A DNA stretch of 64,000 nt from Patescibacteria group bacterium (GTDB taxonomy: Bacteria; Patescibacteriota; Patescibacteriia; UBA9934). The translations under genes and the position numbers were made by a program. Below, piece after piece: positions 8,182 through 64,000 of this stretch. Under the pieces are notes generated by a model. That model did no database searches, was not told the origin of the DNA, and saw only the letters and a list, made by a program, of their open reading frames with translations. How positions within the stretch are numbered: the first letter of the stretch is position 1; each line of letters starts with the position of its first letter. The stretch spans positions 2,977 through 66,976 of the forward strand of contig JBBTSM010000010.1 of NCBI GenBank assembly GCA_038064675.1, in the 5' to 3' direction.

Positions 8182-8209
8182 AGTGGTAGCACAAGCTAGT
8201 GATTTTTCC

Positions 8210-9754
<1,545 letters not shown>

Positions 9755-15792: not shown

Positions 15793-15977
15793 AGCGAGTG
15801 AGGTGACATCGTGAGCGCTAGTGGCGAGGGTACATTCTTCCAACGAGCACGCGCCCCACAGCTGCAGTCGAACGAAGTGAGACTCTGCAGCGTAGGGGAT
15901 TCGCGCGGAGTGCAGAAGAATGTATCCAAGCCACCAGCTCACGATAGTCATTGGATCCCCGCCTGCGCGGGGATGAC
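15793..15977 (-). repeat. Copy B of the ~185-bp repeat element, inverted relative to copy A
   Basis: Reverse complement aligns to 8210..8397 at about 80% identity, including the identical 26-nt hairpin gtcatccccgcgcaggcggggatcca. Confidence 0.8.
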
Positions 15978-15999
15978 TGAAGAAGTCCACGATCTACAT

Positions 16000-20105: not shown

Positions 20106-20630
20106 ATGATCGCTATTAACAAGCCAGCACCAAGCTTTGAAAACATTACGTCGTACACCGAGGGAGAGTTCACCAAAACCAGTTTGAGCACCTACAAAGG
20201 TGGTTGGGTGGTGCTGTTCTTCTACCCTCGCGACTTCACGTTCATCTGCCCTACTGAAATTAAAGGTTTCCAAAAGCACGAAGCAGACTTTGCTGCACTC
20301 AACGCAAAAGTCGTCGGCGCATCCACCGACAGTGAATGGAGTCACAAAGCATGGTTTGAACGCGATCTTCCAGAAGTGGCCTACCCTATTCTTGCGGACA
20401 CCACGCAAAAAGTTTCCCGCGACTACGGCGTATTAAATGAAGACGACGGCAGCAGCGATCGCGGACTCTTCATCATCGACCCAGAAGGCGTGGTGAAATT
20501 CGCACTTGTCTCCGCAGGATCGGTCGGCCGATCGGTAAAGGAAGTAATTCGTGTACTGACAGCTCTGCAGTCTGGCGAGCTTTGTCCGGTGGAATGGGAA
20601 CCTGGCGAGAAGACATTAGGAAAGGCGTAA
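20106..20630 (+). CDS. peroxiredoxin (AhpC/TSA family, typical 2-Cys)
   Basis: FFYPRDFTFICPTEI holds the peroxidatic Cys; resolving Cys in GELCPVEW near the C-terminus. Confidence 0.92.
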   Translation: MIAINKPAPSFENITSYTEGEFTKTSLSTYKGGWVVLFFYPRDFTFICPTEIKGFQKHEADFAALNAKVVGASTDSEWSHKAWFERDLPEVAYPILADTTQKVSRDYGVLNEDDGSSDRGLFIIDPEGVVKFALVSAGSVGRSVKEVIRVLTALQSGELCPVEWEPGEKTLGKA

Positions 20631-22316: not shown

Positions 22317-22412
22317 AGAAAGAGGTGATCCGCGCTCTGACGGCATTACAATCTGGCGAGCTGTGTCCGGTGGAATGGGAACCGGGTGAGAAGACCTTAG
22401 GGAAGGTGTAGA
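22317..22412 (+). pseudogene. Remnant 3' fragment (last ~31 codons plus stop) of a second, diverged peroxiredoxin gene
   Basis: Encodes S-KEVIRALTALQSGELCPVEWEPGEKTLGKV*. The prx gene ends SVKEVIRVLTALQSGELCPVEWEPGEKTLGKA*. About 80% nucleotide identity, differences mostly synonymous. No upstream ORF. Confidence 0.7.
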
Positions 22413-38520: not shown

Positions 38521-39555
38521 TCATGAAGCCTTGTGGATAGGCAGAACAATGCTCACTGTTGTACCAATATCTACAGCACTTTTCATAGCAATTGTTCCCC
38601 CAGATGATTGGACGATGGATCTTGCAATAGACAATCCCAATCCGCTTCCACCGGTCCGTCGCGATCGGCTCTTATCTGCTCGATAAAATCGGTCAAAAAT
38701 CTTCTGTACATCGTGCTCGGCAATGCCAACGCCGGTATCAGCCACATCGATACGAACCGAGTCATCTTGTCGCGTCATTGAAACATTCACCGATCCATTG
38801 GTGCGGTTATACAGAATCGCATTCTCAATCACATTCGTGAGCACGCGGATTAATGGCTCTTCTGTGGCAAGAACAGTAAATGTTTCCGGCGCGTCCTCTA
38901 GCGTAAGTGTCACACGGTGTTTTGTTGCAATCGACGACAGCCGATCAACAACCGTTTGAAGAACGTCGTTCATCGTCAAAGAAACCCTCGTCACCTCCGT
39001 CCCAGTATGCTCAAGCTTCGATAATGAAAGAACATCGCTCACCAATGTACTCATACGCCGAACCTCCTCAAGATGACTCTCGGCAGATACTCGCACGTCG
39101 GCCGATCCGCCATCGCGTTCGTTTTCCAGGTTCGCCTGGAGAATCGCAAGCGGTGTTCGAAGTTCGTGCGATGCATCGCTCAAGAACTGACGCTGACGTT
39201 CATATGCTTCTTCGATTGGCCGCAGTGTACGCGTGGCAAGCCGATAACTAATAAACACCGAAAGAAACACAAGAATGCCATTCACCATGAGCAACGTGTC
39301 AGACAAATCTTCAGTAACGTCGTCAACGTTCACCGGGAATACCACCGGGTGAATGCGATCGTTTCGATCGATAACCAACGCAAATCGCTGACTAAGACGA
39401 TCCGAAAACACGGTGCGCGTTACTCCACTTGAAATGAACAAGAGAATAACAAGAATGCCGGTGTAAATTGCCGTCAGCGCAACGCGTGTTCGAAAATATT
39501 CTTCACGAAACGAGCCGGTATCCTTTTCCCCAAACCGTTTGAATACGTTTCGCAT
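38521..39555 (-). CDS. sensor histidine kinase (HisKA + HATPase_c)
   Basis: H-box SHELRTPL; N, G1 and G2 boxes (NAILYN, DTGVGI, GGSGLGLSI); two N-terminal TM helices. Confidence 0.9.
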   Translation of the reverse strand: MRNVFKRFGEKDTGSFREEYFRTRVALTAIYTGILVILLFISSGVTRTVFSDRLSQRFALVIDRNDRIHPVVFPVNVDDVTEDLSDTLLMVNGILVFLSVFISYRLATRTLRPIEEAYERQRQFLSDASHELRTPLAILQANLENERDGGSADVRVSAESHLEEVRRMSTLVSDVLSLSKLEHTGTEVTRVSLTMNDVLQTVVDRLSSIATKHRVTLTLEDAPETFTVLATEEPLIRVLTNVIENAILYNRTNGSVNVSMTRQDDSVRIDVADTGVGIAEHDVQKIFDRFYRADKSRSRRTGGSGLGLSIARSIVQSSGGTIAMKSAVDIGTTVSIVLPIHKAS

Positions 39556-40168
39556 ACTCCTTTGGCAATTTCTTTCGAAGATTTTTCAAGTGAACATCTA
39601 CAACATTGCTTAACGAGTCGAAGAACCGATCCCACACGTGCGACAAAATATCTTCTCGCGTTACCACAGCGCCTTGATTCCGCAGGAAGTACTCGAGCAA
39701 TGCATATTCTCGCAACGTCAGATCGATCGGTTTTCCGTTGATCGTAACAATTTGTGAACGCGTATCAAGGAGCAATCCGTCCAGTGTCAGCACATCGCCT
39801 TGCACGTTCGGTGCCCTGCGAGTAATCGCACGAATGCGTGCCACAAGCTCGTCGAACGAGAATGGCTTCACAACATAATCGTCTGCACCAACGTTGAATC
39901 CGGTAATCTTTTCGTGCACGTCGCTCTTTGCGGTAAGAAACAGCACCGGCGTTTGCACACCAGATGCCCGAAGCTTCTTACACATTTCAAAACCGTCCAT
40001 GATGGGCATCATCACATCGAGCACAATACAATCATACACATTGTCTTTCGCAATCCGTTCCCCCTCTGCACCGTCGAAAGCCGCATCAACCGTGTATCCA
40101 CGGCTGCGCAAGCCTTGAACGATAGCGGCATTCAATTTCTGTTCGTCTTCAACAACGAGGATTTTCAT
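39503..40168 (-). CDS. OmpR/PhoB-family response regulator
   Basis: MKILVVEDE, DVMMP, winged-helix C-terminus (TLREYALLEYF...VWGKGYRL). Confidence 0.93.
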   Translation of the reverse strand: MKILVVEDEQKLNAAIVQGLRSRGYTVDAAFDGAEGERIAKDNVYDCIVLDVMMPIMDGFEMCKKLRASGVQTPVLFLTAKSDVHEKITGFNVGADDYVVKPFSFDELVARIRAITRRAPNVQGDVLTLDGLLLDTRSQIVTINGKPIDLTLREYALLEYFLRNQGAVVTREDILSHVWDRFFDSLSNVVDVHLKNLRKKLPKEYAKRIQTVWGKGYRLVS

Positions 40169-40410
40169 ACGTAGATAGTATACAAACATCGCATGAAGGA
40201 ACCGTGAAGCCACAATATCCACAATTCTCTTGCAAAGCAAAGAATCTGTGGTATTCTCAATACATCCCTATGAACGCTCAGTCGTACGCAACCCAGATTC
40301 TCGTGGTCGCAATGCCAATTCATGGCCTTTGCGATTTTACGCGTTTCCTTCCTTGTGCCAACGACAGATCGATTCATTCTGTATAACGCAACGTCCAAAC
40401 GTGCGTGACT

Positions 40411-40455
40411 GAAGAAAAACGATCTGTCTCCCCGACAGGTCGTTTTTCTTCAGGC
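40411..40455. promoter_or_regulatory. 20-bp-stem near-perfect hairpin/palindrome ctgaagaaaaacgatctgtc-tcccc-gacaggtcgtttttcttcag upstream of the two-component operon
   Basis: 20 paired positions with one G.U, 5-nt loop; no T-run, so operator or RNA structure rather than a classic terminator. Confidence 0.4.
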
Positions 40456-40521
40456 GTTCACTCACTCCCCACGGCTTTGCCTGAGGCCAAACACCCCGTT
40501 CCCCGCAGAGGTTCCCGTTCC

Positions 40522-40845
40522 ATGGCACGTTTGAAGCCCCATCAGAAGAAGAATCGCGCCGCTCTCGCTGCGCTCGGCCATACCTCCGTCGCAAGCGCAA
40601 TCGCGGAGATCCGCCGGTCGATGCCCAGCTTCGACAAAAGGCACAACTACCCGAAGGTGAAGGGCATTTGCCCGTCCCTCGTGGATCTCGTGCTCTGGGC
40701 TCGTGGCCAAAAAGCGTTCGCGTTCGATCACGAGACCGGCGGATTCGTCTCCAACAACCAGCGCGATCGCGAAGCTCGCAGCCTCTCGCGTTCTCGCGAG
40801 GATCGATTCCCGAAGTCCGGACAGCCCTGGCACATCTGCGAGTAG
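40522..40845 (+). CDS. hypothetical protein (107 aa) in a GC-rich patch, doubtful
   Basis: ORF MARLKPHQKKNRAALAALGH...; alternative ORFs on the other strand are Arg-rich and random-looking. Confidence 0.2.
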   Translation: MARLKPHQKKNRAALAALGHTSVASAIAEIRRSMPSFDKRHNYPKVKGICPSLVDLVLWARGQKAFAFDHETGGFVSNNQRDREARSLSRSREDRFPKSGQPWHICE

Positions 40846-40940
40846 AAACGACATCCCACCATACGCGGTGGAAACAACAGATCGGCCACGCACCGATCAA
40901 CGAAACGGGACGAGCTTCGCAGCTCGTCCCGTTCACAGTT

Positions 40941-42395
40941 TTATGACAACGTGCTCATGTCGAGCGTTTGGGTGAAATGAATCTGCGATACAAATTCTGG
41001 CGCGTGGCTCACCATGATGACGCAGCCTTGATATTCATCGATCGCTTTTGCAATAACTGGAAGATGACGGAAGTTGATGTGGTTTGTTGGCTCGTCAAGA
41101 ATCAACAGCCCCGGGGCCTGCAGCACGAAACGGGCGAAGCAGAGCAAACCTTTCTGACCTTCGGACAGTGAACCCACCGTGTTCTGCAGCACAGCACTTG
41201 TAAGCAAGAATTGCGAGGCAACGGCGCGAAGCGTTTCGTTCGACTTCAGCTCCATCACCGATGCGAGCGAATCGTACGCGGTTTGTTCAAAATCGAGCCC
41301 GGAGAAATCTTGTTTGTAGTATCCAACCTTTACGCCTGGATCGATCGCGAGGCCTTCTGTTTTTCCCGACGCCAATGCGCGAAGCAGCGTACTCTTACCG
41401 ATGCCGTTTGTGCCGGAAACCAAAAGCTTCTGACGGCGACGCAACTTGATGTGCACCTTTGCATCACGAGGTTCGTGATTCTTAATAACTTTCACCGAGG
41501 TCATCGTCACCATTGTTTCAATAAAGTCCTGCGTTGGAATAGCAAAATCCTTGATGGTCCGATCATCACGACGCACCTCTACCATGTTCTCCTCTGCTTC
41601 TTCGGCTTGGTCTTTGAGCTTACTTGCCAACTTACGCATCTTTCCTCCCTTGTTTGCGAAGAAGTTCACCTTATCTTTGCGGTCTTGAATCTCCTTCAAG
41701 AGCTGCGCGTTCTTTGCGCGATCACGTTCAACACGAGCAGCAATCTCTTCAATCACGTCGGAATAGTTTCCAACATAGATATCCGTTTGATGACGGTACA
41801 CATCCAAGTGCAACACACCTTCGGTAAACGCGTTTAAGAAATCCGCATCGTGGGAAATGACGAGTACTGTTTTTGGATACATCATCAAGAAGCCGGTAAG
41901 GTGCTCGATGCCGTCGTGATCAAGGTTGTTCGTCGGCTCGTCGAGCAACAGGATATCTGGGTTCTGAATCAATGCGTACGCAAGAAGCAAACGTGCTTGT
42001 TGGCCACCGGAAAACTCGCCAATGATCTTTTCCAGCGGTGCAACAAGATTCACCGCCTCGAGCACTTCAGCGATACGTCTGTCCAGATCGTACGTGATCT
42101 CTGGAAATGCGTGTGCAAAGAAATCGCGAACGGATTCGGTGAGATGTTCGCGGCTCATCACCTGACGACCGATGGCAATCGTCGATCCCTTCTGAATGTG
42201 GATCTGTCCGCCGTCGGGTTTGATCTCCCCCAGAATCATTTTAAAAATTGTGCTCTTCCCCGCACCATTCTGGCCCATCACGGTAATTTTACTGTTCTCA
42301 CGAATCGAAAAGTTCGCATCGTCAAGAATTGGGTAATCCCCGTCATACGCATACGACACGTTTTCAAACCGGACGATGACATTGCCGTGGTCCAT
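40941..42395 (-). CDS. ABC-F family ATPase (second paralog)
   Basis: Two ABC domains (GQNGAGKST / GTNGIGKST; FSGGQQARL / LSEGQKGLL) with a basic linker. Confidence 0.9.
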   Translation of the reverse strand: MDHGNVIVRFENVSYAYDGDYPILDDANFSIRENSKITVMGQNGAGKSTIFKMILGEIKPDGGQIHIQKGSTIAIGRQVMSREHLTESVRDFFAHAFPEITYDLDRRIAEVLEAVNLVAPLEKIIGEFSGGQQARLLLAYALIQNPDILLLDEPTNNLDHDGIEHLTGFLMMYPKTVLVISHDADFLNAFTEGVLHLDVYRHQTDIYVGNYSDVIEEIAARVERDRAKNAQLLKEIQDRKDKVNFFANKGGKMRKLASKLKDQAEEAEENMVEVRRDDRTIKDFAIPTQDFIETMVTMTSVKVIKNHEPRDAKVHIKLRRRQKLLVSGTNGIGKSTLLRALASGKTEGLAIDPGVKVGYYKQDFSGLDFEQTAYDSLASVMELKSNETLRAVASQFLLTSAVLQNTVGSLSEGQKGLLCFARFVLQAPGLLILDEPTNHINFRHLPVIAKAIDEYQGCVIMVSHAPEFVSQIHFTQTLDMSTLS

Positions 42396-42403
42396 AGGAA
42401 AAA

Positions 42404-43300
42404 TTATCGAATGGGGACTCCTGATGCCGCGCCAACCATGCAGTCGTCGTTGCACCAAATTCCTTTCTCGTGTTTTGCACAGTTGAAACAGATCAACAAT
42501 TGCTTATGACACTCATGCCATGCGCAATTCCCAAACCGTTCTGTTTTGCTCGAGCACGCCGTACATTCACCAATCACCATATATTTATCTGTAAATTGTT
42601 CAGTCATTCGTCCGTCAAAAACGTACAACGATCCCAAGAAATCCTCCCCGGGAAACTGCCTCATGTACGTGCCAATTCCACCGTTCAGCTGGTAAACGTC
42701 TTCGAATCCCTGCTGCTTCAGGAAACCTGATGCTTTTTCACATCGTACGCCATACGTACACACCGTGAGCACTTTCTTCTTTTTCAGATCCTCGAACTTC
42801 GACGTAATCTTCGGCAAATCTCGAAAATTCGCCATTGTGCTGTTCTTAGAGTTGGCAAAGTGGCCTACAGCGTACTCGTAATTGTTGCGCATGTCGATGA
42901 TTTCGAACTCTTCACCATTTTCAATCCAGCGCTTCAGCTCCTCAGGATCGATGTGCTTTCCCGTCGTCACATTTGGATCGACATCCTGATCCTTTGATAA
43001 TCCTGTCGCGACAATTTCGGATCGGAGCTTTACGACGAGCTTCTTGAATGCCTCCCCTGTTCCTGGACTCGATTTAAACCAGAGACCCACAAATTCCGGT
43101 AACGAGTGCATCCAAGCCTCGTACTCCGCAATCGATTCCGCCGCCCCTTCAAGGGTGCCATTTATTCCTTCAGCTGCAACGAGGATTCGTCCAAAAAGAC
43201 CCAGCTTTTCGCACATCTCCCGTTGGAGAGCGACGAATACTTTTGGGTCTGAAATCCGAACGTATTTATAGAAGATGATGATCTCGGTTGGCGCGGACAT
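42404..43300 (-). CDS. trhO: rhodanese-domain tRNA U34 hydroxylase TrhO (YceA/UPF0176 family)
   Basis: N-terminal IIIFYKYVRISDP...LGLFGRILVAAEGINGT, rhodanese CxxGxR (CTYGVRCEKA), C-terminal Cys cluster CTACS...CAWHEC...CFNC. Start taken at MSAPTEI. Confidence 0.8.
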   Translation of the reverse strand: MSAPTEIIIFYKYVRISDPKVFVALQREMCEKLGLFGRILVAAEGINGTLEGAAESIAEYEAWMHSLPEFVGLWFKSSPGTGEAFKKLVVKLRSEIVATGLSKDQDVDPNVTTGKHIDPEELKRWIENGEEFEIIDMRNNYEYAVGHFANSKNSTMANFRDLPKITSKFEDLKKKKVLTVCTYGVRCEKASGFLKQQGFEDVYQLNGGIGTYMRQFPGEDFLGSLYVFDGRMTEQFTDKYMVIGECTACSSKTERFGNCAWHECHKQLLICFNCAKHEKGIWCNDDCMVGAASGVPIR

Positions 43301-43435
43301 ATTCGGCAAGAGTGTACGCGAAAAAAGTGAAAGAGACCAGACCCGAACCTGATCTTTGATGGATGTGAAGGGAGCGAATGGCGGTAACAGCGCATCATCG
43401 GCGAACTTGGCATGTGCGTTTTGCGAAATATTGTA

Positions 43436-43511
43436 TGTGCGGTCGACCGCACATTTTATCTGCAAAAATGCCAATACATCGATGAGCGAAATGTTCGGTG
43501 GACCGCACATG
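43436..43511. promoter_or_regulatory. operator module: 18-bp perfect palindrome tgtgcggtcgaccgcaca plus related site cggtggaccgcacatg exactly 60 bp downstream
   Basis: Module repeats at 54969..55044 with identical site sequences and spacing but different spacer. Lies upstream of trhO. Confidence 0.6.
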
Positions 43512-43580
43512 CATAGAATCGGGAATCGAGGATCTACGCTCGCGTAAAAAGCTAGCTCACCGTGGATTGCCGCATCGGAA

Positions 43581-45365
43581 TTACGATTCCCTCTTCCCAT
43601 GCATCACCATCTCAACCGCGTGTTCCAACGATCCTGCTGGCGTAACGGTTCCGGCATTCACGAAGTAGATTTCATCGGCAGTTTCGATGGTATTCAAACG
43701 GTGCGCGATGATCACACGCGTTGTGGTAGATGGAAGTTGGCGAAGAATGTCCTCAAGCAGTTGTTCGGTAACGGTATCGATGTTTGCAGTCGCTTCGTCC
43801 AAGATAAGAATATCCGGTTTTCGCAACACCGCTCGCATGAACGCAATCAACTGTCGCTGGCCAAGACTCATGGAATTTCCGTTCGATGTTACTGGTGTTT
43901 CCAATCCCTCCGCAAAGCGAGGGAGGAGCGCCGACAATCCGCTCGTCGTAATAATTTCAACGAGTCGCTCCGATGATACTGAAGCAAGCTCATCGTTACC
44001 GTACACGATATTGTCACGAATGGTTCCAGTAAATAGGAACGGCTCCTGCAAAATGAATCCAATGCGCTTGGCACGATCGGCCGCCACGTAATTCTTCATA
44101 TCAACGCCGTGAAGCAGCACCGATCCTTCCGACGGATCGTACAATCGCGCCATCAACGACGCTGTGGTGGTTTTTCCCCCACCAGTTGGACCAACCAACG
44201 CATACGTCTTCCCCGCTTCAAGCGAAAAGTTCACGTCGCGCAACACGGTCTTACCATTCGGATAGTGGAATTTCACGTTTTTGAATTCCAGAACTGGTGC
44301 GGATGTGTTCACCGCAGCGCCGGATCCCTCAATCATTTCCGACTCCATGCTGAGAATATCAGAAATACGGTCCCACGCCGCTAGCGCAAGCTGGAAAGAG
44401 CTCCAGAGGCTCGCAATTTGGCGCAACGGATCATAGAAACGTGTTACATACGTCAAGAAACTGATAAGCACACCAATGGTGAGCAACCCGAGGCCAATGA
44501 GATGCGCGCCGTACGCAATAACGACGAGAATCGCGATGTTGCTCGACAAACCGTAGATTGGGGCGAAGATGGTATTCGCGAGTCCGGCAGTGATCGATGC
44601 TTTGAAGTTTTTCTCATTCACCGTTGTAAACCGTTCGCGGAAGTAGTCCTGGCGGTGGAACGCTACGATAACGCTAAAGTTGTTCAGGCTTTCTTGAATA
44701 CTCGCGCTCATGTCGCCGATCGTTTCCAGGCTCTTTGCGTTCTTGCGTTTCATCCAGCCGGAGAGCAGACGAGTGATGACGAGGAGGAACAATGCCGGGG
44801 CAAGAGCCGCAGAACCAAGACGAGGGTTAATAACGAGTACGGAGATTCCAGCACCAATCACCATAAATACGCTTCCAACGAATTGCATCAATGCCTGAGA
44901 GAAGAACTGGTTGAGCTTGTCCGTATCGTTGTTGATACGAGAGATGAGATCACCAGCCTTGTTCTGGTTAAAGAACGCCACAGGAAGCGTTTGAAGCTTC
45001 GTAAAGATCGCATTACGCAAATTGAACAGCACGCGATTGCTCACAGCACCCATCACACGAGTTTGGGTGTACTGCGCTAATGCGGCAAGACCGAAGATAG
45101 CGAGCAGTAAGGATGAGAACGTGATAACACCATCAAACTGACGCGTGACGATGTACGTATCAACAACATGACCAACAATAATTGGCGCAGCAAGATTCAG
45201 GCCTGAGTTCAGGATGATCGCAATGAACGCGATGACCATTCCCTTCTTTTCACCCCCGATAAACGGCGCAAACTTCTTCGCCACGGCAAGGAGCGCGTTG
45301 GACGACGTTCCTTTGTTTTCGGCAAGACTATAGTTCATATGCGCTGGTGCTTTGCTGTGATTCAA
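43581..45365 (-). CDS. ABC exporter, fused permease/ATPase (MsbA-like)
   Basis: 6-TM N-terminal domain plus NBD (GPTGGGKTT, LSLGQRQL, ILILDEAT). Confidence 0.92.
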   Translation of the reverse strand: MNHSKAPAHMNYSLAENKGTSSNALLAVAKKFAPFIGGEKKGMVIAFIAIILNSGLNLAAPIIVGHVVDTYIVTRQFDGVITFSSLLLAIFGLAALAQYTQTRVMGAVSNRVLFNLRNAIFTKLQTLPVAFFNQNKAGDLISRINNDTDKLNQFFSQALMQFVGSVFMVIGAGISVLVINPRLGSAALAPALFLLVITRLLSGWMKRKNAKSLETIGDMSASIQESLNNFSVIVAFHRQDYFRERFTTVNEKNFKASITAGLANTIFAPIYGLSSNIAILVVIAYGAHLIGLGLLTIGVLISFLTYVTRFYDPLRQIASLWSSFQLALAAWDRISDILSMESEMIEGSGAAVNTSAPVLEFKNVKFHYPNGKTVLRDVNFSLEAGKTYALVGPTGGGKTTTASLMARLYDPSEGSVLLHGVDMKNYVAADRAKRIGFILQEPFLFTGTIRDNIVYGNDELASVSSERLVEIITTSGLSALLPRFAEGLETPVTSNGNSMSLGQRQLIAFMRAVLRKPDILILDEATANIDTVTEQLLEDILRQLPSTTTRVIIAHRLNTIETADEIYFVNAGTVTPAGSLEHAVEMVMHGKRES

Positions 45366-52790: not shown

Positions 52791-53300
52791 CTACTCGAGG
52801 ATTTCTGTGTTGGTGAGCGAGGCACGAATTCCATCAAGATCCTGTTTCGTTATTGTGTTCCCCCGAAGATCCAGGCGCTGCAAGTGTTTCAAATTCCCAA
52901 GCTCATTCGGCAAACCCGTCAATTGGTTGTTCGAGAGATCGAGCGTTTGTAAATTCACCAGCTGACCAATTTCTGCCGGCACCCCAGTCATCGCGTTATC
53001 GCTTGCATCAAGTGATTGTAAGTTCTGCAAGAACCGAATTTCACCCGGAAGCGCTCCGGTAAGTGCATTGTGAGAAACATCAAGGCTCGTGGTTGTTGTT
53101 TTTGTGAATACCGAAGACTGCAGGCTCGTGAGTCCGCGATTGCTGAGATCAATCACCGTTGAAGACGTTGCCGTTGAGGTGGATGACGGTGTTGTGGTCG
53201 ACGGCGAGGTCGTGGTTGTGACCGCTGTCGGCACCGATGCAGTACATCCGGCACCCATTATCACCATCCCGAAAACCAGTACGAAACCAAAAAGGATCTT
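52791..53300 (-). CDS. secreted leucine-rich-repeat (LRR) protein with Thr/Ser-rich linker
   Basis: Signal peptide MKILFGFVLVFGMVIMGAGC (lipobox-like). Repeats LxxLxxLDLSNNQLTGLP / LQSLDASDNAMTGVP. Confidence 0.75.
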   Translation of the reverse strand, partial: KILFGFVLVFGMVIMGAGCTASVPTAVTTTTSPSTTTPSSTSTATSSTVIDLSNRGLTSLQSSVFTKTTTTSLDVSHNALTGALPGEIRFLQNLQSLDASDNAMTGVPAEIGQLVNLQTLDLSNNQLTGLPNELGNLKHLQRLDLRGNTITKQDLDGIRASLTNTEILE

Positions 53301-53331
53301 CATAGAGTTCAACCATAACACGGTTCACCTC

Positions 53332-53643
53332 TTACCGCATTGGACACGTATTTTTCCCAAGCGCTGCGTACATGCCGCACCAAGAAAATGCCGCTTCGAA
53401 GAAGCAAAACCCAGAGAAGAACACCAGCCACCAGCTCCAGCCAGTCAGCATCGCCCAGAACAAAAGCGCAATACCGACGACAAGGCGAACCACGCGGTCG
53501 TTCATGCCGATGTTGCGCGTGGCACCATGTGGCTTCTTTGACGCAAACGTTTTCATGAACGCTCGATACGCAAAAGCAAATACTACGCCAGCAATCATTG
53601 CAGACGCCGCAGAAATGAGGGCCGAAGATGAAAAATCAATCAT
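53332..53643 (-). CDS. DUF2892-family small inner-membrane protein
   Basis: Two TM helices and C-terminal FCFFEAAFSWCGMYAALGKNTC, as in DUF2892/YgaP-like proteins. Confidence 0.5.
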   Translation of the reverse strand: MIDFSSSALISAASAMIAGVVFAFAYRAFMKTFASKKPHGATRNIGMNDRVVRLVVGIALLFWAMLTGWSWWLVFFSGFCFFEAAFSWCGMYAALGKNTCPMR

Positions 53644-54056
53644 AGAGACGTTGGGTATATTTTCGTAAGGCATTCGCTCCACTCGCTCTCAGCAACTGGC
53701 TGCACAGAGAGCCGGGAATTCTTCACAAGCACCATGTTCTTGAGCTCAGGAAGCTTCTTGATGTCGTCGAGCGACAACGGAACATCTGCTGCACGATCGG
53801 CTCGAATATCAACTGCGACCCAATCCCCTTCCCTTGCGGTTGGGTCTGGATACGCCGCTCGCGCAACAATCGCGAGCCCATGAATCGATCGCTCGTTCAC
53901 CGAATGATAGATGAACACAGAATCGCCAATGCGCATGGCGCGTAAATTGTTGCGCGCCTGAAAGTTTCGCACGCCCGTCCAGCTTGTGGTGCCTTCGCGA
54001 ACAAGATCGTCCCACGAGTATGTACTCGGTTCAGTTTTGAGAAGCCAATGCTGCAT
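53640..54056 (-). CDS. EVE-domain (PUA-like) protein
   Basis: MQHWLLKTEPSTYSWDDL...WTGVRNFQARNNLRAMRIGDSVFIYHS is the EVE signature. Confidence 0.85.
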   Translation of the reverse strand: MQHWLLKTEPSTYSWDDLVREGTTSWTGVRNFQARNNLRAMRIGDSVFIYHSVNERSIHGLAIVARAAYPDPTAREGDWVAVDIRADRAADVPLSLDDIKKLPELKNMVLVKNSRLSVQPVAESEWSECLTKIYPTSL

Positions 54057-54059
54057 AGA

Positions 54060-54824
54060 TTACACAGAGATCCACGTCGGTTCGGCAATGAGTCTGCCGC
54101 CGTCAATATCAAATCTACGAAACGCGCGAAGATCGGTAGAGGAACCGGCATTGTACATGGCAAGCGGCCGCTGGGTATATGGGAAAACAATTTCCGACGG
54201 CACGTGGCGATGACCGTGAAGTACAAGGTCGCAACGGCCTTTGATTTTTTCTAAAAGTTTCGAACCGTACGAAAGGTTTTCAGCGAACGGAAGAGAGAAC
54301 CAGGAGGAAATATATTCAATGAAAAGCTCCGCGGGAAGCGGCAACGGATGATGATGGAGCGCGACAATAACGAATGTTCCTTTAGGGACTTGCGATAATA
54401 ATCGATCAACGTCGCGAAGCATTGCCGAGGAAATATTTCCATGACTCGCAAACGTGATGCGATTGTACCAACGGGTCGTATCAATACGAAGCGTGATGAT
54501 GTCGCCCTGCCGTACAAGATTTACTGGTTCATCACCCATCATCTGGCGAGAAACGTTCGCACGAGATCGGTCGTGATTCCCCGGAAGAAGAATCATGTTT
54601 CGGTCTGCTCGAAGTTGTGTAGTGATCGCAAAGAACTCCTCGAACTCGGCGATGCTCCCGCGATTCGTAATATCACCCGTCACGATAACGGTTTGAATGT
54701 TGCTCGCGAGAATCGCATCACACATTCGCCTCAGCACAAACGAACGCTCAGGCGAAGAGCCGATGTGCAGATCCGAAATGTGAGCCACAGCGTGCAGATG
54801 AGAATATTCTATCACCATGATCAA
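54060..54824 (-). CDS. metallophosphoesterase (calcineurin-like)
   Basis: ISDLHIG, VTGDITNRG, LPGNHD, VALHHHP, GHRHV motifs. Confidence 0.85.
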   Translation of the reverse strand: MIMVIEYSHLHAVAHISDLHIGSSPERSFVLRRMCDAILASNIQTVIVTGDITNRGSIAEFEEFFAITTQLRADRNMILLPGNHDRSRANVSRQMMGDEPVNLVRQGDIITLRIDTTRWYNRITFASHGNISSAMLRDVDRLLSQVPKGTFVIVALHHHPLPLPAELFIEYISSWFSLPFAENLSYGSKLLEKIKGRCDLVLHGHRHVPSEIVFPYTQRPLAMYNAGSSTDLRAFRRFDIDGGRLIAEPTWISV

Positions 54825-54968
54825 AGAATCTGAACGGAAATGAAGGGAACTGCTATTGGATGGGTTGTGAGGGTTGAGAATCTGATCTTTTGAAGGGGTT
54901 GGGACGAGACAAACGATTACTCAACATCATCGGCGACCTCGGGGTGGTCGACTTCGTGATATTCTCTA

Positions 54969-55044
54969 TGTGCGGTCGACCGCACATTTCGCTCTTCGAT
55001 TCATTGGGCTTTTTGTAAATAAAATGTTCGGTGGACCGCACATG
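54969..55044. promoter_or_regulatory. second copy of the operator module (palindrome tgtgcggtcgaccgcaca; site cggtggaccgcacatg at +60) in a divergent promoter region
   Basis: Identical sites and spacing to 43436..43511. Lies between the metallophosphoesterase gene (minus) and the SET gene (plus). Confidence 0.6.
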
Positions 55045-55261
55045 CTCAGAATCTGAAATCGCGCACCCGGAATTGCCGATGATGCCTGTCGCTCGTCAGC
55101 TCATCCCTCACTTTTGCTCAAAGGATCAGTCTCCGTACATCACATTCTCTCAAAGACCACTTCAGATTATGCCGAAGAAAACCATGCGCAGCCGTCACTC
55201 CTCACCGCCTTTCGTCTCGCGGCATATTTCAAGGTCCCGGTTGAAAAGCTCTTTTCCTTCA

Positions 55262-55291
55262 AAGAACGCCCATAGCGTTCTAGACTTTTTT
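55262..55291 (+). terminator. hairpin agaacgc-ccata-gcgttct followed by agactttttt, inside the 500-bp region upstream of the SET gene
   Basis: Stem-loop plus T6 on the + strand with no annotated upstream + gene. Possible sRNA or attenuator terminator. Confidence 0.35.
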
Positions 55292-55328
55292 CCAAATTTC
55301 TGCTATTCTTCGCGGTTATTTTTCTTCT

Positions 55329-55730
55329 ATGACCTACGTCCCCCGCAAAACCGCATTCAATGTTGTGCCGCGCAAAAGCGCTGCGGGCTTGGGCGTGTTT
55401 ACGAACGTTGCCATTCCAAAGCGTCGGTTCATTATTGAATACTGGGGCGACATCGTCACCGAAGACGAAGCGAATCGCATTGGCGGAAAGTATCTTTTCG
55501 AAATCGGGAACGGCAAAACCATCAATGGCACCACCCGAAAGAATATTGCTCGGTATATCAACCATTCCTGCCGTCCAAACTGCGAAGTCGAAGTACAGGG
55601 CCGAAAAGTGCTCGTCTTTTCAAAGCGCGCAATCAAACCCGGCGAAGAGCTTTCGTACAACTACGGCAAAGACTACTTCAACCATTTCATCGGCAAGCAC
55701 TGCCGCTGCGCGAAGCACCGAGCTGTATAG
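55329..55730 (+). CDS. SET-domain protein lysine methyltransferase
   Basis: RFIIEYWGDIV, NHSCRPNC (SET motif III), ELSYNYG (motif IV), post-SET Cys GKHCRCAKH. Confidence 0.9.
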   Translation: MTYVPRKTAFNVVPRKSAAGLGVFTNVAIPKRRFIIEYWGDIVTEDEANRIGGKYLFEIGNGKTINGTTRKNIARYINHSCRPNCEVEVQGRKVLVFSKRAIKPGEELSYNYGKDYFNHFIGKHCRCAKHRAV

Positions 55731-59865: not shown

Positions 59866-59923
59866 GGATCCCCGCCTTCCCCCTTCGCTAAAGCTATGGG
59901 GGACAGGTCGCGGGGATGACCAA
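59866..59923. repeat. partial or expanded copy of the repeat-element hairpin (ggatccccgcc ... gtcgcggggatgac, with a 33-nt insert containing ccccc...ggggg)
   Basis: Reverse complement reads gtcatccccgcg[acctgtcccccatagctttagcgaagggggaa]ggcggggatcc, the same arms as the gtcatccccgcg-cag-gcggggatcca hairpin of copies A and B. Confidence 0.55.
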
Positions 59924-59933
59924 AACATAAATA

Positions 59934-62111: not shown

Positions 62112-64000
62112 ATGACCTCTCTTTTTCTTCGGAGAACACTTGGAATAACAACGATCTTTGCCATGTTTTTGGGCTTTTTCCCAACAGCAGCTGGTGCAGC
62201 ATGGCTCGCCGCCCCAACCAACGTCACCCTTGATGGCGGCATCTACACCAACGACACCACGCCAACCGCCACCTGGACACGCCCTTCTGGAGCAACCTGG
62301 TATCAAATTTTAGTCGATAATGGCAACTGGATCGATATTTCCAATACCGACTCCTACACCATCTGGAGCCTAGCAAACGGCTGGCACACGTTCTACGTTC
62401 GTGCTCGCGACAATAGCAACACCGTAAGCGTTTCAGACTCCGTCACCTTCGAAATCGACACAGCTGGCCCAACCGTTCCTGCAGTTTCGCCATCAACGGC
62501 AACTGAGGATCGCGCAACAACCTTTAGCGTAACGCCTTCCGGCGAATCTACAATATCGTTCTGCGATCTGTACGTGAGCGGATCCTCTGTCGGATCGATG
62601 ACGAAAAACGGATCAACCTTTACCAAGTCCTACACGTTCACCAACGACGGCAGCTACACGGTGTACGCACGCTGCGCCGATGGTGATGGGAACTACACCA
62701 CTGGAACATCGCGCACGGTTACGGTAAGCAATGTGGATGTTTCAGACACCTTCTCCGTTCCATCAGTGTCTCCTTCAATCGCAGTAGAGGATCAATCAAC
62801 AACCTTCACCGTTACTCCATACGGCACACTCGATGCGATCGCCTGTAATCTGTACGTCAGTGGCGCGTACGCAGGATCGATGAGCAAGTCGTCAGCAACA
62901 TTCAGCAAGAGCTACACCTTCTCGAACGATGGCAGCTACACCGTGTACGCGTCTTGTGAAAACGAGAACGGCAGCTGGGTGAATGGCACATCACGAACCG
63001 TCAGCGTGAGCAACATCGACGTAAACGACACATTTTATGTGCCATCGGTTTCACCATCGTCAGCGAACGAGGACGAATCGACAACATTCACCGTGTCGCC
63101 ATACGGCACACTGGATGCCATCGCATGTAACCTCTACGTGAGCGGATCATCCGTTGGTTCCATGAGCAAATCCGGCAGCACATTTAGCCGCAACTACACC
63201 TTCAGCAACGACGGAAACTATACCGTCTACGCGTACTGCGAAAACGAGAACGGCACTTGGACATACGGAACGTCACGCACTGTTACCGTCAGTAACACCA
63301 ATACAAACGATACATTCACCGTCCCATCGGTTTCTCCTTCAACGGCAACCGAGGACCAGTCCACGACATTCTCTGTTACGCCATACGGCACACTCGACGC
63401 AGATGAATGCAAACTCTACGTCAGCGGATCATCTGTTGGATCGATGAGCCAGTCTGGCGACACCTTCTCCAAGAACTACACCTTCTCGAACGACGGGAGC
63501 TACACGGTGTACGCGTACTGTCAGGATGAGAATGGCGACTGGGAATACGGAACATCACGCACGGTTACCGTGTATCAGCAAAGCTCGAGCAACACATCGC
63601 TCGATGTTCCAACGGTTTCCCCATCAACGGCAGTGGAAGACGAACGAACCGAGTTCACCGTGTATCCAACAAGCAACTACAATGTTACTGATTGCTGGTT
63701 GTATGTGAACGGCTCACGCGTCGCAACAATGGACGAAGAATCCACGAACCGATTCGCTGCAGACTACACCTTCAGCAACGACGGCAGCTACAGCGTGTAC
63801 GCACGATGCACCGATAGCCACGGCACAACGGTGAACGGCGACGAACGCAGCGTGTACGTGAGCAACCAGTCGTATTCGTACGACGACGCAGACCGCGGAA
63901 CACTCATCAAAATTCCCTGTGGCGTGTATTCCAACACATCGGAAACGTGTAAGGCCGTGTATTACTACGGCAACGACGGCATGCGCCACGTGTTCCCAAA
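62112..64000 (+). CDS. secreted surface protein with an N-terminal Ig-like domain and at least 5 tandem ~95-aa Ig-like repeats (two Cys each); partial, continues beyond window
   Basis: Open frame from ATG 62112 (preceded by in-frame TAA) to the window end, missed by the ORF track. Signal peptide MTSLFLRRTLGITTIFAMFLGFFPTAAGAAW. Repeat unit VPSVSPSTATEDQSTTFTVTPYGTLDAIACNLYVSGSSVGSMSKSGSTFSKNYTFSNDGSYTVYAYCENENGTWTYGTSRTVTVSN. Confidence 0.8.
   Translation, partial: MTSLFLRRTLGITTIFAMFLGFFPTAAGAAWLAAPTNVTLDGGIYTNDTTPTATWTRPSGATWYQILVDNGNWIDISNTDSYTIWSLANGWHTFYVRARDNSNTVSVSDSVTFEIDTAGPTVPAVSPSTATEDRATTFSVTPSGESTISFCDLYVSGSSVGSMTKNGSTFTKSYTFTNDGSYTVYARCADGDGNYTTGTSRTVTVSNVDVSDTFSVPSVSPSIAVEDQSTTFTVTPYGTLDAIACNLYVSGAYAGSMSKSSATFSKSYTFSNDGSYTVYASCENENGSWVNGTSRTVSVSNIDVNDTFYVPSVSPSSANEDESTTFTVSPYGTLDAIACNLYVSGSSVGSMSKSGSTFSRNYTFSNDGNYTVYAYCENENGTWTYGTSRTVTVSNTNTNDTFTVPSVSPSTATEDQSTTFSVTPYGTLDADECKLYVSGSSVGSMSQSGDTFSKNYTFSNDGSYTVYAYCQDENGDWEYGTSRTVTVYQQSSSNTSLDVPTVSPSTAVEDERTEFTVYPTSNYNVTDCWLYVNGSRVATMDEESTNRFAADYTFSNDGSYSVYARCTDSHGTTVNGDERSVYVSNQSYSYDDADRGTLIKIPCGVYSNTSETCKAVYYYGNDGMRHVFP
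62476..63900 (+). repeat. tandem direct repeats, period 282-285 bp, 5 units, coding
   Basis: Unit starts at 62476, 62761, 63043, 63328, 63613; units diverged at about 75-85% nucleotide identity. Confidence 0.85.

Follow-up and report, generated by a model that had tools for sequence, protein, structure and literature searches.

A duplicated two-operator cassette with an inverted core, probably served by a small XRE repressor, upstream of trhO and a metallophosphoesterase operon in a Patescibacteria genome

What is the role of a perfect 18-bp palindrome that recurs, letter for letter, in front of two different transcription units? The question is raised by a 64,000-nt stretch of DNA from a Patescibacteria group bacterium (GenBank assembly GCA_038064675.1, contig JBBTSM010000010.1; hereafter the window, numbered from its first letter), in which TGTGCGGTCGACCGCACA lies at 43436-43453, upstream of the transfer RNA U34 hydroxylase gene trhO, and at 54969-54986, upstream of a metallophosphoesterase operon. 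To our knowledge, almost nothing is known about transcriptional regulation in the Candidate Phyla Radiation (CPR)/Patescibacteria, because these bacteria are uncultivated. An earlier reading of the window, referred to here as the original prediction, took the palindromes to be part of a binding module for a dimeric helix-turn-helix (HTH) transcription factor. Here we propose that the two loci are probably paralogous, mirror-symmetric control cassettes for a small CylR2-like homodimeric repressor of the XRE (HTH_3) family, duplicated before trhO and carrying an inverted core there.

Results

Each module contains two full dyads 56 bp apart

The palindrome is accompanied at both loci by a second string, cggtggaccgcacatg, beginning at 43496 and 55029, and by AGAATCnGrAATCG at 43515 and 55048, once per module, all as originally described. 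These matches are far above chance: when up to three mismatches are allowed, the window contains the 18-mer four times (0.05 expected), a number that none of 100 shuffles reached, and GACCGCACA occurs six times (0.67 expected), always within the two modules. The additional 18-mer matches revealed that the second site is not a half-site, as had been thought, but part of a full imperfect palindrome, TGTTCGGTGGACCGCACA (two mismatches), at 43492 and 55025, and that the true distance from site to site is 56 bp rather than 60 bp. Each module therefore holds two dyads of 18-20 bp, 56 bp from start to start and inverted repeats of each other, with the 20-bp form ATGT-NNN-GT-NN-AC-NNN-ACAT. We refer to the dyads as operators L and R, to the DNA between them as the core and to the flanking DNA as the arms:

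43344-43434, minus strand: proximal arm of module A, toward trhO, with CAAAGATCAG (43349-43359) and TCGCCGATGATG (43393-43404)
43435-43454, no strand: operator L of module A, ATGTGCGGTCGACCGCACAT, a perfect 20-bp dyad identical to 54968-54987
43455-43490, no strand: 36-bp core of module A, opposite in orientation to that of module B and of every clearly oriented relative
43491-43510, no strand: operator R of module A, ATGTTCGGTGGACCGCACAT, inner half-site weakened (T at position 5), central GG
43511-43580, plus strand: distal arm of module A, GCATAGAATCGGGAATCG followed by a decayed TTGCCGCATCGG box (43568-43579)
54877-54967, minus strand: proximal arm of module B, toward the metallophosphoesterase operon, boxes at 54882-54892 and 54925-54936
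54968-54987, no strand: operator L of module B, ATGTGCGGTCGACCGCACAT
54988-55023, no strand: 36-bp core of module B in the common orientation, CATTGGGC, its A-rich end GTAAATAAA beside operator R
55024-55043, no strand: operator R of module B, ATGTTCGGTGGACCGCACAT
55044-55129, plus strand: distal arm of module B, mirroring the proximal arm, with GCTCAGAATCTGAAATCGCGCACCC, TTGCCGATGATG (55073-55084) and CTCAAAGGATCAG (55117-55129)

All 40 operator bases are identical between modules A and B (P ~5e-9 at 62% per-base identity), while the arms, compared in direct orientation, are 63% identical over the left 90 nt and 55% over the right 40 nt, which argues for selection on the exact operator sequence. 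The boxes CATCATCGGCGA and CTGATCTTT are common to the flanks of both modules, and the homology extends beyond the sites over ~185 bp or more, giving a cassette of ~185-330 bp. The two promoter regions are thus related, contrary to the original prediction, and conservation of sites amid divergent spacers no longer serves as a hallmark of a binding module, since what is compared is a homologous cassette whose spacer is conserved but inverted. On this alignment the two loci appear to be paralogous copies of one cassette.

In an anchored alignment of all modules, the right arm mirrors the left in diverged form. Reading outward, the operator is followed by nAnAAT at a distance of 1-4 nt, CAAA(A/T)CGCACA, T(C/T)GCCGATGATG, CAAAGATCAG and the start codon, with the conserved element CAAAACGCACA between nAnAAT and GCCGATGATG in each arm; in the proximal arm of module A, CAAAACGCACA/ACAATAT adjoins the operator. 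The T(C/T)GCCGATGATG and CAAAGATCAG boxes point outward in each arm (43349-43404, 54882-54936 and 55073-55129), and the stop codon of an ABC transporter gene directly adjoins module A's distal arm. From the mirrored arms, the cassette looks like a symmetric divergent control region that was copied as a unit. Two other roles for these blocks were considered and rejected: GCCGATGATG and CAAAGATCAG are not general expression signals, their exact copies being confined to the modules, and a coding role for the conserved blocks is contradicted by a 1-nt indel between the copies, which breaks the reading frame, and by the lack of conservation of the ATGATG-initiated peptides.

An XRE gene lies beside the cassette in relatives and is decayed in the window

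Beside module B, the window holds the remains of an XRE gene:

55114-55275, plus strand: decayed XRE/HTH_3 gene (tblastn 76% over 33 aa, E=1e-13; without a Pfam match)

Only the C-terminal 33 aa (55174-55272) still align and the recognition helix is lost; against the intact gene of the relative L001, a DNA alignment contains gaps of 34 nt and 20 nt in which the HTH is deleted. Four further assemblies (L003-L006, from Hainich groundwater together with GCA_964357295.1) are identical to the window across module B, and the pseudogene state is the same in all five assemblies of this population.

Among 185,579 species representatives, the exact 20-mer pattern has one other real locus, L001, a Candidatus Uhrbacteria metagenome-assembled genome that holds the orthologue of module B; the window itself derives from a groundwater relative of Candidatus Uhrbacteria. 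The remaining exact matches are isolated single chance sites in L002 and L007, and viral contigs contain none. The presence of the 20-mers in one other genome argues against a widely dispersed repeat, and the many non-promoter copies that would have spoken against regulatory sites were not seen. In L001 an intact 71-aa HTH_3 gene (Pfam 1.9e-11) starts 70 nt to the right of operator R, before the SET gene.

A protein search with the L001 XRE gene returned six further clusters, and each of the three that were looked up carries the cassette directly upstream:

L015, protein P0125: context RuvB...bPH_2, XRE, SpoIID; operators TGTCAAGTTGACTTGACA and TGTAAAGTCAACTTGACA
L018, protein P0126: context peptidyl-prolyl isomerase, XRE, TM0106 RecB-like nuclease; operators TGTCGTGTCAACACGACA and TGTTGTGTGGACACGACA
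L019, protein P0127: context as in L018; operators TGTTAGGTTGACCTAACA and TGTTAGGTCAACCTAACA

The cassette is therefore directly upstream of an XRE homologue in 4/4 fetched loci and three genomic contexts, and the intact HTH_3 genes of L001, L015, L018 and L019, of 71-75 aa, lie 70-180 nt from operator R. The solved protein closest to this family is CylR2, a 66-aa dimeric repressor (E=1.1e-8 over 62 aa), in an alignment that includes the ..SRQT..IEK.. recognition helix. Taken together, this company suggests that ATGTGCGGTC(C/G)ACCGCACAT is the putative binding sequence of an XRE protein such as P0121, and that the gene directly served on the SET side would be the XRE gene itself, decayed in this genome.

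The cassette is also found away from XRE genes. At L009, where TrhO is 87% identical to that of the window, it is present with CGT-type sites. This locus and the XRE locus L018 come from one shared assembly and are both of the CGT type; we infer that they are copies within one genome, going no further because a REP-like block that they share, GTCATTCTGAACGAAGTGA, may have inserted independently. No dyad pair was found upstream of the TrhO homologues of L010, L012, L013 and L014 (82-86% identical), and the trhO copy is therefore lineage-restricted. Contigs L008, L010 and L011 end, each at its position 1, 120-150 nt upstream of close TrhO homologues, that of L008 ~12 nt before the expected operator L; these ends may reflect assembly trouble at inverted repeats or low coverage. 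A scan of the window and all loci for TGT-N3-GT-N2-AC-N3-ACA matched only the modules, besides the single chance sites in L002 and L007.

Operator sequences co-vary across all four half-sites

Seven distinct modules were compared, namely A and B of the window and those of L001, L009, L015, L018 and L019. All seven keep the 56-bp spacing and 36-bp spacer despite indels in the arms, their 76-nt cores align without gaps, and the L018 module is an imperfect palindrome over 112 bp. Four operator types, TGT-GCG/CGT/CAA/TAG-GT, were distinguished, in which the only variable positions are the triplet and its mirror image, and the triplet changes in step across all four half-sites. Of the cells, 95% are paired and six pairs carry double changes, a result matched by 0/500 shuffles, and pairing drops to 21-52% when the alignments are slid. 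Within the two sites, dyad pairing over the seven modules is 98% and 92%. In L001, L015 and L019 the two operators are exact inverted repeats with asymmetric centres (CC/GG, TG/CA), while in the window the central dinucleotides differ (CG versus GG) and the two operators are exact inverted repeats over 10 nt at most.

In modules of three site types, those of the window, L018, L015 and L009, the weak half-site recurs at one place, position 4 of the 18-mer within operator R's inner half; in the window it forms a G-U wobble on neither strand. Its recurrence fits affinity tuning. In the proteins, variation within the HTH peaks at the first position of the recognition helix (helix 3), occupied by R with GCG operators, G with CGT, S with CAA and T with TAG, and a second variable position directly follows the SQ of helix 2. 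Together with the neighbouring HTH_3 genes at 4/4 loci, the co-variation of the operator triplet supports the proposal of a module for a dimeric HTH factor, on grounds other than those first given for it.

The 36-bp core is inverted upstream of trhO

The spacers had been called unrelated, and in direct orientation they share only 8 of 36 positions. Spacer A (43455-43490) is, however, identical at 29 of 36 positions to the reverse complement of spacer B (54988-55023), a value that none of 200,000 shuffles reached, and a repeat finder reported 43435-43525 as 80% complementary to 54953-55043. The modules compare as follows:

Module A and module B: 8/36 direct, 29/36 reverse complement
Module A and L001: 9/36 direct, 29/36 reverse complement
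Module A and L018: 15/36 direct, 21/36 reverse complement
L009 and L018: 27/36 direct, 12/36 reverse complement
L019 and L018: 18/36 direct, 18/36 reverse complement (L019 ambiguous)

Module B, L001, L009, L015 and L018 are oriented alike and module A is opposite, so that the core of the window's trhO copy is inverted relative to paralogue and orthologue alike. The core, which is conserved and asymmetric, always abuts one operator with its A-rich end. An assembly artefact was rejected, as the 10-nt inverted repeat is shorter than any assembly k-mer and the orientation is therefore set by the reads. We do not claim a second inversion between L019 and L018, which match equally both ways, the L019 core being itself half-palindromic.

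Whether the core is flipped (module A) or not (module B), the deviant T of operator R, at position 5, lies on the same side. Since the weak inner half-site stayed put, the exchange was not at the operator centres; either the DNA broke within the 6-bp inner repeat ACATTT/AAATGT or re-homogenisation of the sites followed. A Pfam scan of 67 open reading frames (ORFs) found no serine or tyrosine recombinase and no transposase in the window, and no orientation differences were found within populations, as judged from consensus assemblies of the window and L003-L006, L015-L017 and L019-L021. The lack of a recombinase, the single orientation per population and the unmoved half-site together argue for an evolutionary inversion rather than a programmed switch, with the inverted repeats as the likely mediators of the flip. 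Compensatory changes spanning several bases and inversions of loops are both known consequences of template switching (PMC8794818).

Genes next to the modules

Both modules sit upstream of minus-strand genes, module A before trhO and module B before a four-gene operon, and the distal arm of module B faces the XRE remnant and a SET gene:

42404-43300, minus strand: trhO, downstream of module A, likely start ATG at 43300
52791-54824, minus strand: metallophosphoesterase operon, served by the proximal arm of module B (Pfam; L003 gene calls)
54060-54818 or 54824, minus strand: metallophosphoesterase, first gene of the operon
53640-54056, minus strand: EVE domain protein
53332-53682, minus strand: YgaP-like transmembrane protein
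52791-53321, minus strand: leucine-rich repeat (LRR) protein
55329-55730, plus strand: SET-domain methyltransferase, downstream of the XRE remnant (Pfam SET 9.5e-23)

The trhO product matches Pfam UPF0176_N, Rhodanese and Rhodanese_C as well as NCBIfam TrhO (234.8 bits, cut-off 170). The original choice of targets, trhO and the metallophosphoesterase/SET pair, remains plausible, except that the decayed XRE gene rather than the SET gene is the one directly served on that side. Membership of the regulated genes in a defence system was looked for with PADLOC and NCBIfam, and all matches were far below the cut-offs. A TM0106-family RecB-like nuclease gene lies 18 nt after the XRE gene at L018:3246-4634 and L019:3246-4637 (NCBIfam 340 bits) and is likely a further regulon member in these relatives. 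The gene order trhO, ABC-F ATPase, sometimes a small ORF, OmpR-type response regulator and histidine kinase (38521-42458 in the window) is kept in L009, L010, L012 and L013, with or without an upstream cassette.

Three ORFs run across the cassettes: a 398-aa extension of trhO (42404-43600, minus strand), a 62-aa frame (54853-55041, minus strand) and a 135-aa frame (55031-55438, plus strand). Since the paralogue comparison indicates a non-coding region, ORFs called here are almost certainly spurious, a lesson for the annotation of such intergenic regions generally. A relative's TrhO, P0003, is annotated at 355 aa, which we attribute to the same extension.

Other repeats in the window and relatives

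A non-coding inverted repeat of ~190 nt (8200-8390, plus strand, and 15800-15990, minus strand; 87% column identity) brackets the F-type ATP synthase operon, with a copy between atpD and atpC and another upstream of a TatD-family gene. An intergenic palindrome resembling repetitive extragenic palindromes (REPs), GTCATCCCCGCG(C/A)AGGCGGGGATCC, occurs at 8210-8235, 15952-15978 and 59909-59933 and at L013:1-28, and related GTCAT... palindromes lie within the cassette arms of relatives (GTCATTGCGAGGAGGGTAATCCCGACGCGGCAATC in L001; GTCATTCTGAACGAAGTGA in L009 and L018). A 282-bp unit is tandemly repeated four to six times (63-88% identity) over 62472-63815, apparently as a repeated 94-aa domain in a coding region that runs past the window's end. 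Finally, a 92-nt direct repeat (80% identical) joins 20538-20629, the 3' end of an AhpC/TSA peroxiredoxin gene, to 22319-22410, in unannotated sequence 1.8 kb away, which may be a gene fragment.

Discussion

On balance we favour the explanation that the modules are operator cassettes of a CylR2-like XRE repressor. Predicted repressor dimers would bind at both operators and repress each arm's outward promoter, the weaker inner half-site of operator R giving graded occupancy. The cassette's home would be directly upstream of the XRE gene, where it would mediate autoregulation, and the copy before trhO would have recruited that gene to the same control. The core would have flipped through recombination or template switching between the mutually inverted operators, shifting its A/T-rich end (..GATAAA|ATGT, resembling a -10 element or a U-tract) from the distal to the trhO-proximal operator. 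In this genome, where the neighbouring XRE gene is decayed, a paralogue outside the 64 kb would supply the repressor.

Several observations weigh against this explanation. By Pfam and homology, the window contains no intact XRE gene or other candidate HTH gene, its sole regulator being the OmpR-type response regulator, and because the adjacent XRE gene is decayed the gene for the binding protein must lie outside the 64 kb. The comparison of helix residues with operator types draws on only four, phylogenetically dependent lineages, and the variable helix residue is presumably, by analogy with 434 repressor and CylR2, an N-cap rather than a classic base-contacting position. No convincing sigma-70 promoter overlaps the operators: a consensus scan found a single candidate, TTGGCA-16-TATTGT, which faces into operator L of module A and has no counterpart in module B, in a group for which promoter rules are not established. 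A sigma-70 promoter within the 36-bp core was rejected by eye and by scan, as no acceptable -35 lies at 16-18 bp, leaving room for a -10-only element, and a sigma-54 promoter in TTGGCATTTTTGCA was rejected by eye on its GG-to-GC distance of 9 rather than 12. The 56-bp spacing corresponds to ~5.3 helical turns, which places the two sites on different faces of the helix. Complementarity between L and R extends, above chance, to their central, non-palindromic dinucleotides (9/12 cells, P ~0.009), a property that a pure two-operator model does not require and that points to repeated interaction between the repeats. Lastly, single strands of the cassette fold into a very stable hairpin of 22-26 bp, a fold compatible with a structural role.

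That hairpin is the starting point of the alternative that the module is a structural nucleic-acid element, in which the 20-mers pair as a 22-26 bp RNA hairpin or DNA cruciform and act as an insulator, directional terminator, RNase III target or 5'-end stabiliser between units, the XRE association being secondary. Both strands of the 96-nt core fold as a long L:R hairpin (dG -32 to -43 kcal/mol, z -4.9 to -7.4), L:R pairing reaches 93%, extending to the central dinucleotide in L001, L015 and L019 (binomial P ~0.009), a hairpin with T-run at 43435-43454 was flagged as terminator-like, and in L009 the distal hairpin and T-run come after an ABC transporter gene; stem maintenance and loop inversion by template switching are, moreover, documented (PMC8794818). 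A hairpin, however, needs only that L be the reverse complement of R, which leaves the within-site dyads (98% and 92% paired) unexplained, along with the identical sequence of unlinked copies in one genome and the HTH gene beside all four fetched loci. The operator R mismatch is U-C on one strand and G-A on the other, with no wobble, a conserved loop that works either way round is unlike an RNA element, and the long stem lacks a following U-tract. Rfam gave no match in the window at the gathering threshold, and at E<=1 only eukaryotic microRNA-precursor models (16-28 bits against cut-offs of 75-105). We regard a structural element as unlikely. A non-autonomous mobile repeat of ~200-330 bp with terminal boxes GAACTGATCTTTGATGG, spread by some transposase in the manner of a miniature inverted-repeat transposable element or of a REPIN, seems to us less likely still. 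It would account for the extended imperfect palindrome with inverted terminal boxes (matching over ~20 nt with two mismatches in L015), the 51-nt arms of L018 (73% complementary), the at least four different gene neighbourhoods and the relatives' contigs that end nearby, and the inverted doublet of short palindromes, intergenic, ~76 bp in total and lineage-specific in sequence, does resemble a REPIN. Yet there are only two modules in 64 kb, with exact 20-mers among 185,579 species genomes only at the related L001 besides isolated chance sites, no transposase or REP-associated tyrosine transposase (RAYT) gene in the window and no target-site duplication seen; each copy stands directly upstream of a start codon in fixed orientation, none lies within genes or at random intergenic spots, and the element is associated with an HTH gene.

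The flipped core raises a further alternative, namely a programmed micro-inverton whose dyads are hix-like recombinase sites with 9-bp half-sites and an asymmetric centre, and whose 36-bp core, by flipping a directional element (a U-tract or the -10-like TAAAAT), switches expression from one side to the other. In its favour, the core at the trhO locus is flipped relative to paralogue and orthologue, 20-bp inverted repeats flank a core found in both orientations, the sites of L001, L015 and L019 are exact inverted repeats with asymmetric centres, and the spacing is strictly fixed around a conserved, asymmetric core whose A-rich end lies by one operator. Like fimS, hin and the Bacteroides polysaccharide A invertons, the cassette has inverted repeats flanking a segment present in both orientations at related loci; unlike them, its segment is 36 bp, it lacks a recombinase gene and polymorphism within populations, and the break points are off the repeat centres. 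Invertible segments are not known below ~150 bp, a size far above the 56 bp between the crossover centres here. Assemblies from one population agreed in orientation throughout (five for the window, three for L015 and three for L019); crossover at the centres would have moved the weak inner half-site to the other operator, where it is not found, and the window's central dinucleotides (CG versus GG) are incompatible. With three of the five defining features of an inverton missing, namely co-existing orientations (in the consensus assemblies), a nearby recombinase (none lies anywhere in the 64 kb) and exchange at the repeat centres, a programmed switch is highly improbable. Only marginally more credence is given to a looser form, in which the operators double as arms of a 36-bp micro-inverton whose directional core is flipped by spontaneous, repressor-aided or unlinked-recombinase recombination. 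Were that true, the flip would redirect expression, turning trhO on or off or choosing between the XRE gene and the metallophosphoesterase operon, and the segment would be by far the smallest known invertible regulatory segment and the first in CPR bacteria.

Inversion by template switching has been reported in the hairpin loops of ribosomal RNA and microRNA stems (PMC8794818) and of chloroplast intergenic regions (PMC12928735). There, as here, a loop is inverted in place between short inverted repeats and stems show multi-base compensatory changes; the reported loops, however, are mostly 4-8 nt, whereas the loop here is 36 nt and conserved and the stems are themselves protein-type dyads. The cassette also illustrates how mutually inverted operators make the DNA between them prone to inversion.

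As a repressor-operator system, the cassette belongs to a well-known kind. CylR2, the cytolysin repressor 2 of Enterococcus faecalis, is a minimal dimeric repressor that acts on an inverted-repeat operator in the divergent cyl promoter region, and its homodimer, as Rumpel et al. reportedly described in 2004, binds a ~22-bp dyad there. The relatives' XRE proteins of 71-75 aa align with it over 62 residues, both being minimal HTH_3 proteins. In contrast to CylR2, we find a conserved 36-bp core bracketed by two operators at a constant 56 bp in a mirror-symmetric region, a cassette duplicated before an unrelated gene, at least four putative operator specificities among close relatives, and neither a CylR1-like partner nor cytolysin genes. 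The Cro/CI, restriction-modification C-protein and anti-CRISPR-associated (Aca) regulators likewise pair a small XRE dimer with two dyads, one of them weaker, upstream of its own gene (autoregulation being predicted here), and in them protein and operator specificity have diversified together between close relatives, as they may have done here across four dependent lineages. Their C-boxes and operators are adjacent, a few bp apart, whereas 56 bp separate the sites here, and no phage, restriction-modification or anti-CRISPR genes are present; the candidate targets are instead trhO, the metallophosphoesterase-EVE operon, the SET methyltransferase and, in relatives, the TM0106 RecB-like nuclease. 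What is unusual about the cassette is the fixed 56-bp spacing around a conserved, flippable core, together with the four apparently co-diversified specificities among close relatives and the loss of the adjacent regulator gene in this genome.

For CPR bacteria, the cassette offers a testable regulator-operator pair of defined architecture, two 20-bp dyads 56 bp apart, and a candidate regulon that comprises trhO, the metallophosphoesterase-EVE-YgaP-LRR operon, the SET methyltransferase and, in relatives, the RecB-like nuclease. Its four operator and recognition-helix variants form a natural series from which the specificity code of a minimal CylR2-like HTH may be read, and its second copy before trhO would illustrate how a regulon grows by the copying of a whole control cassette.

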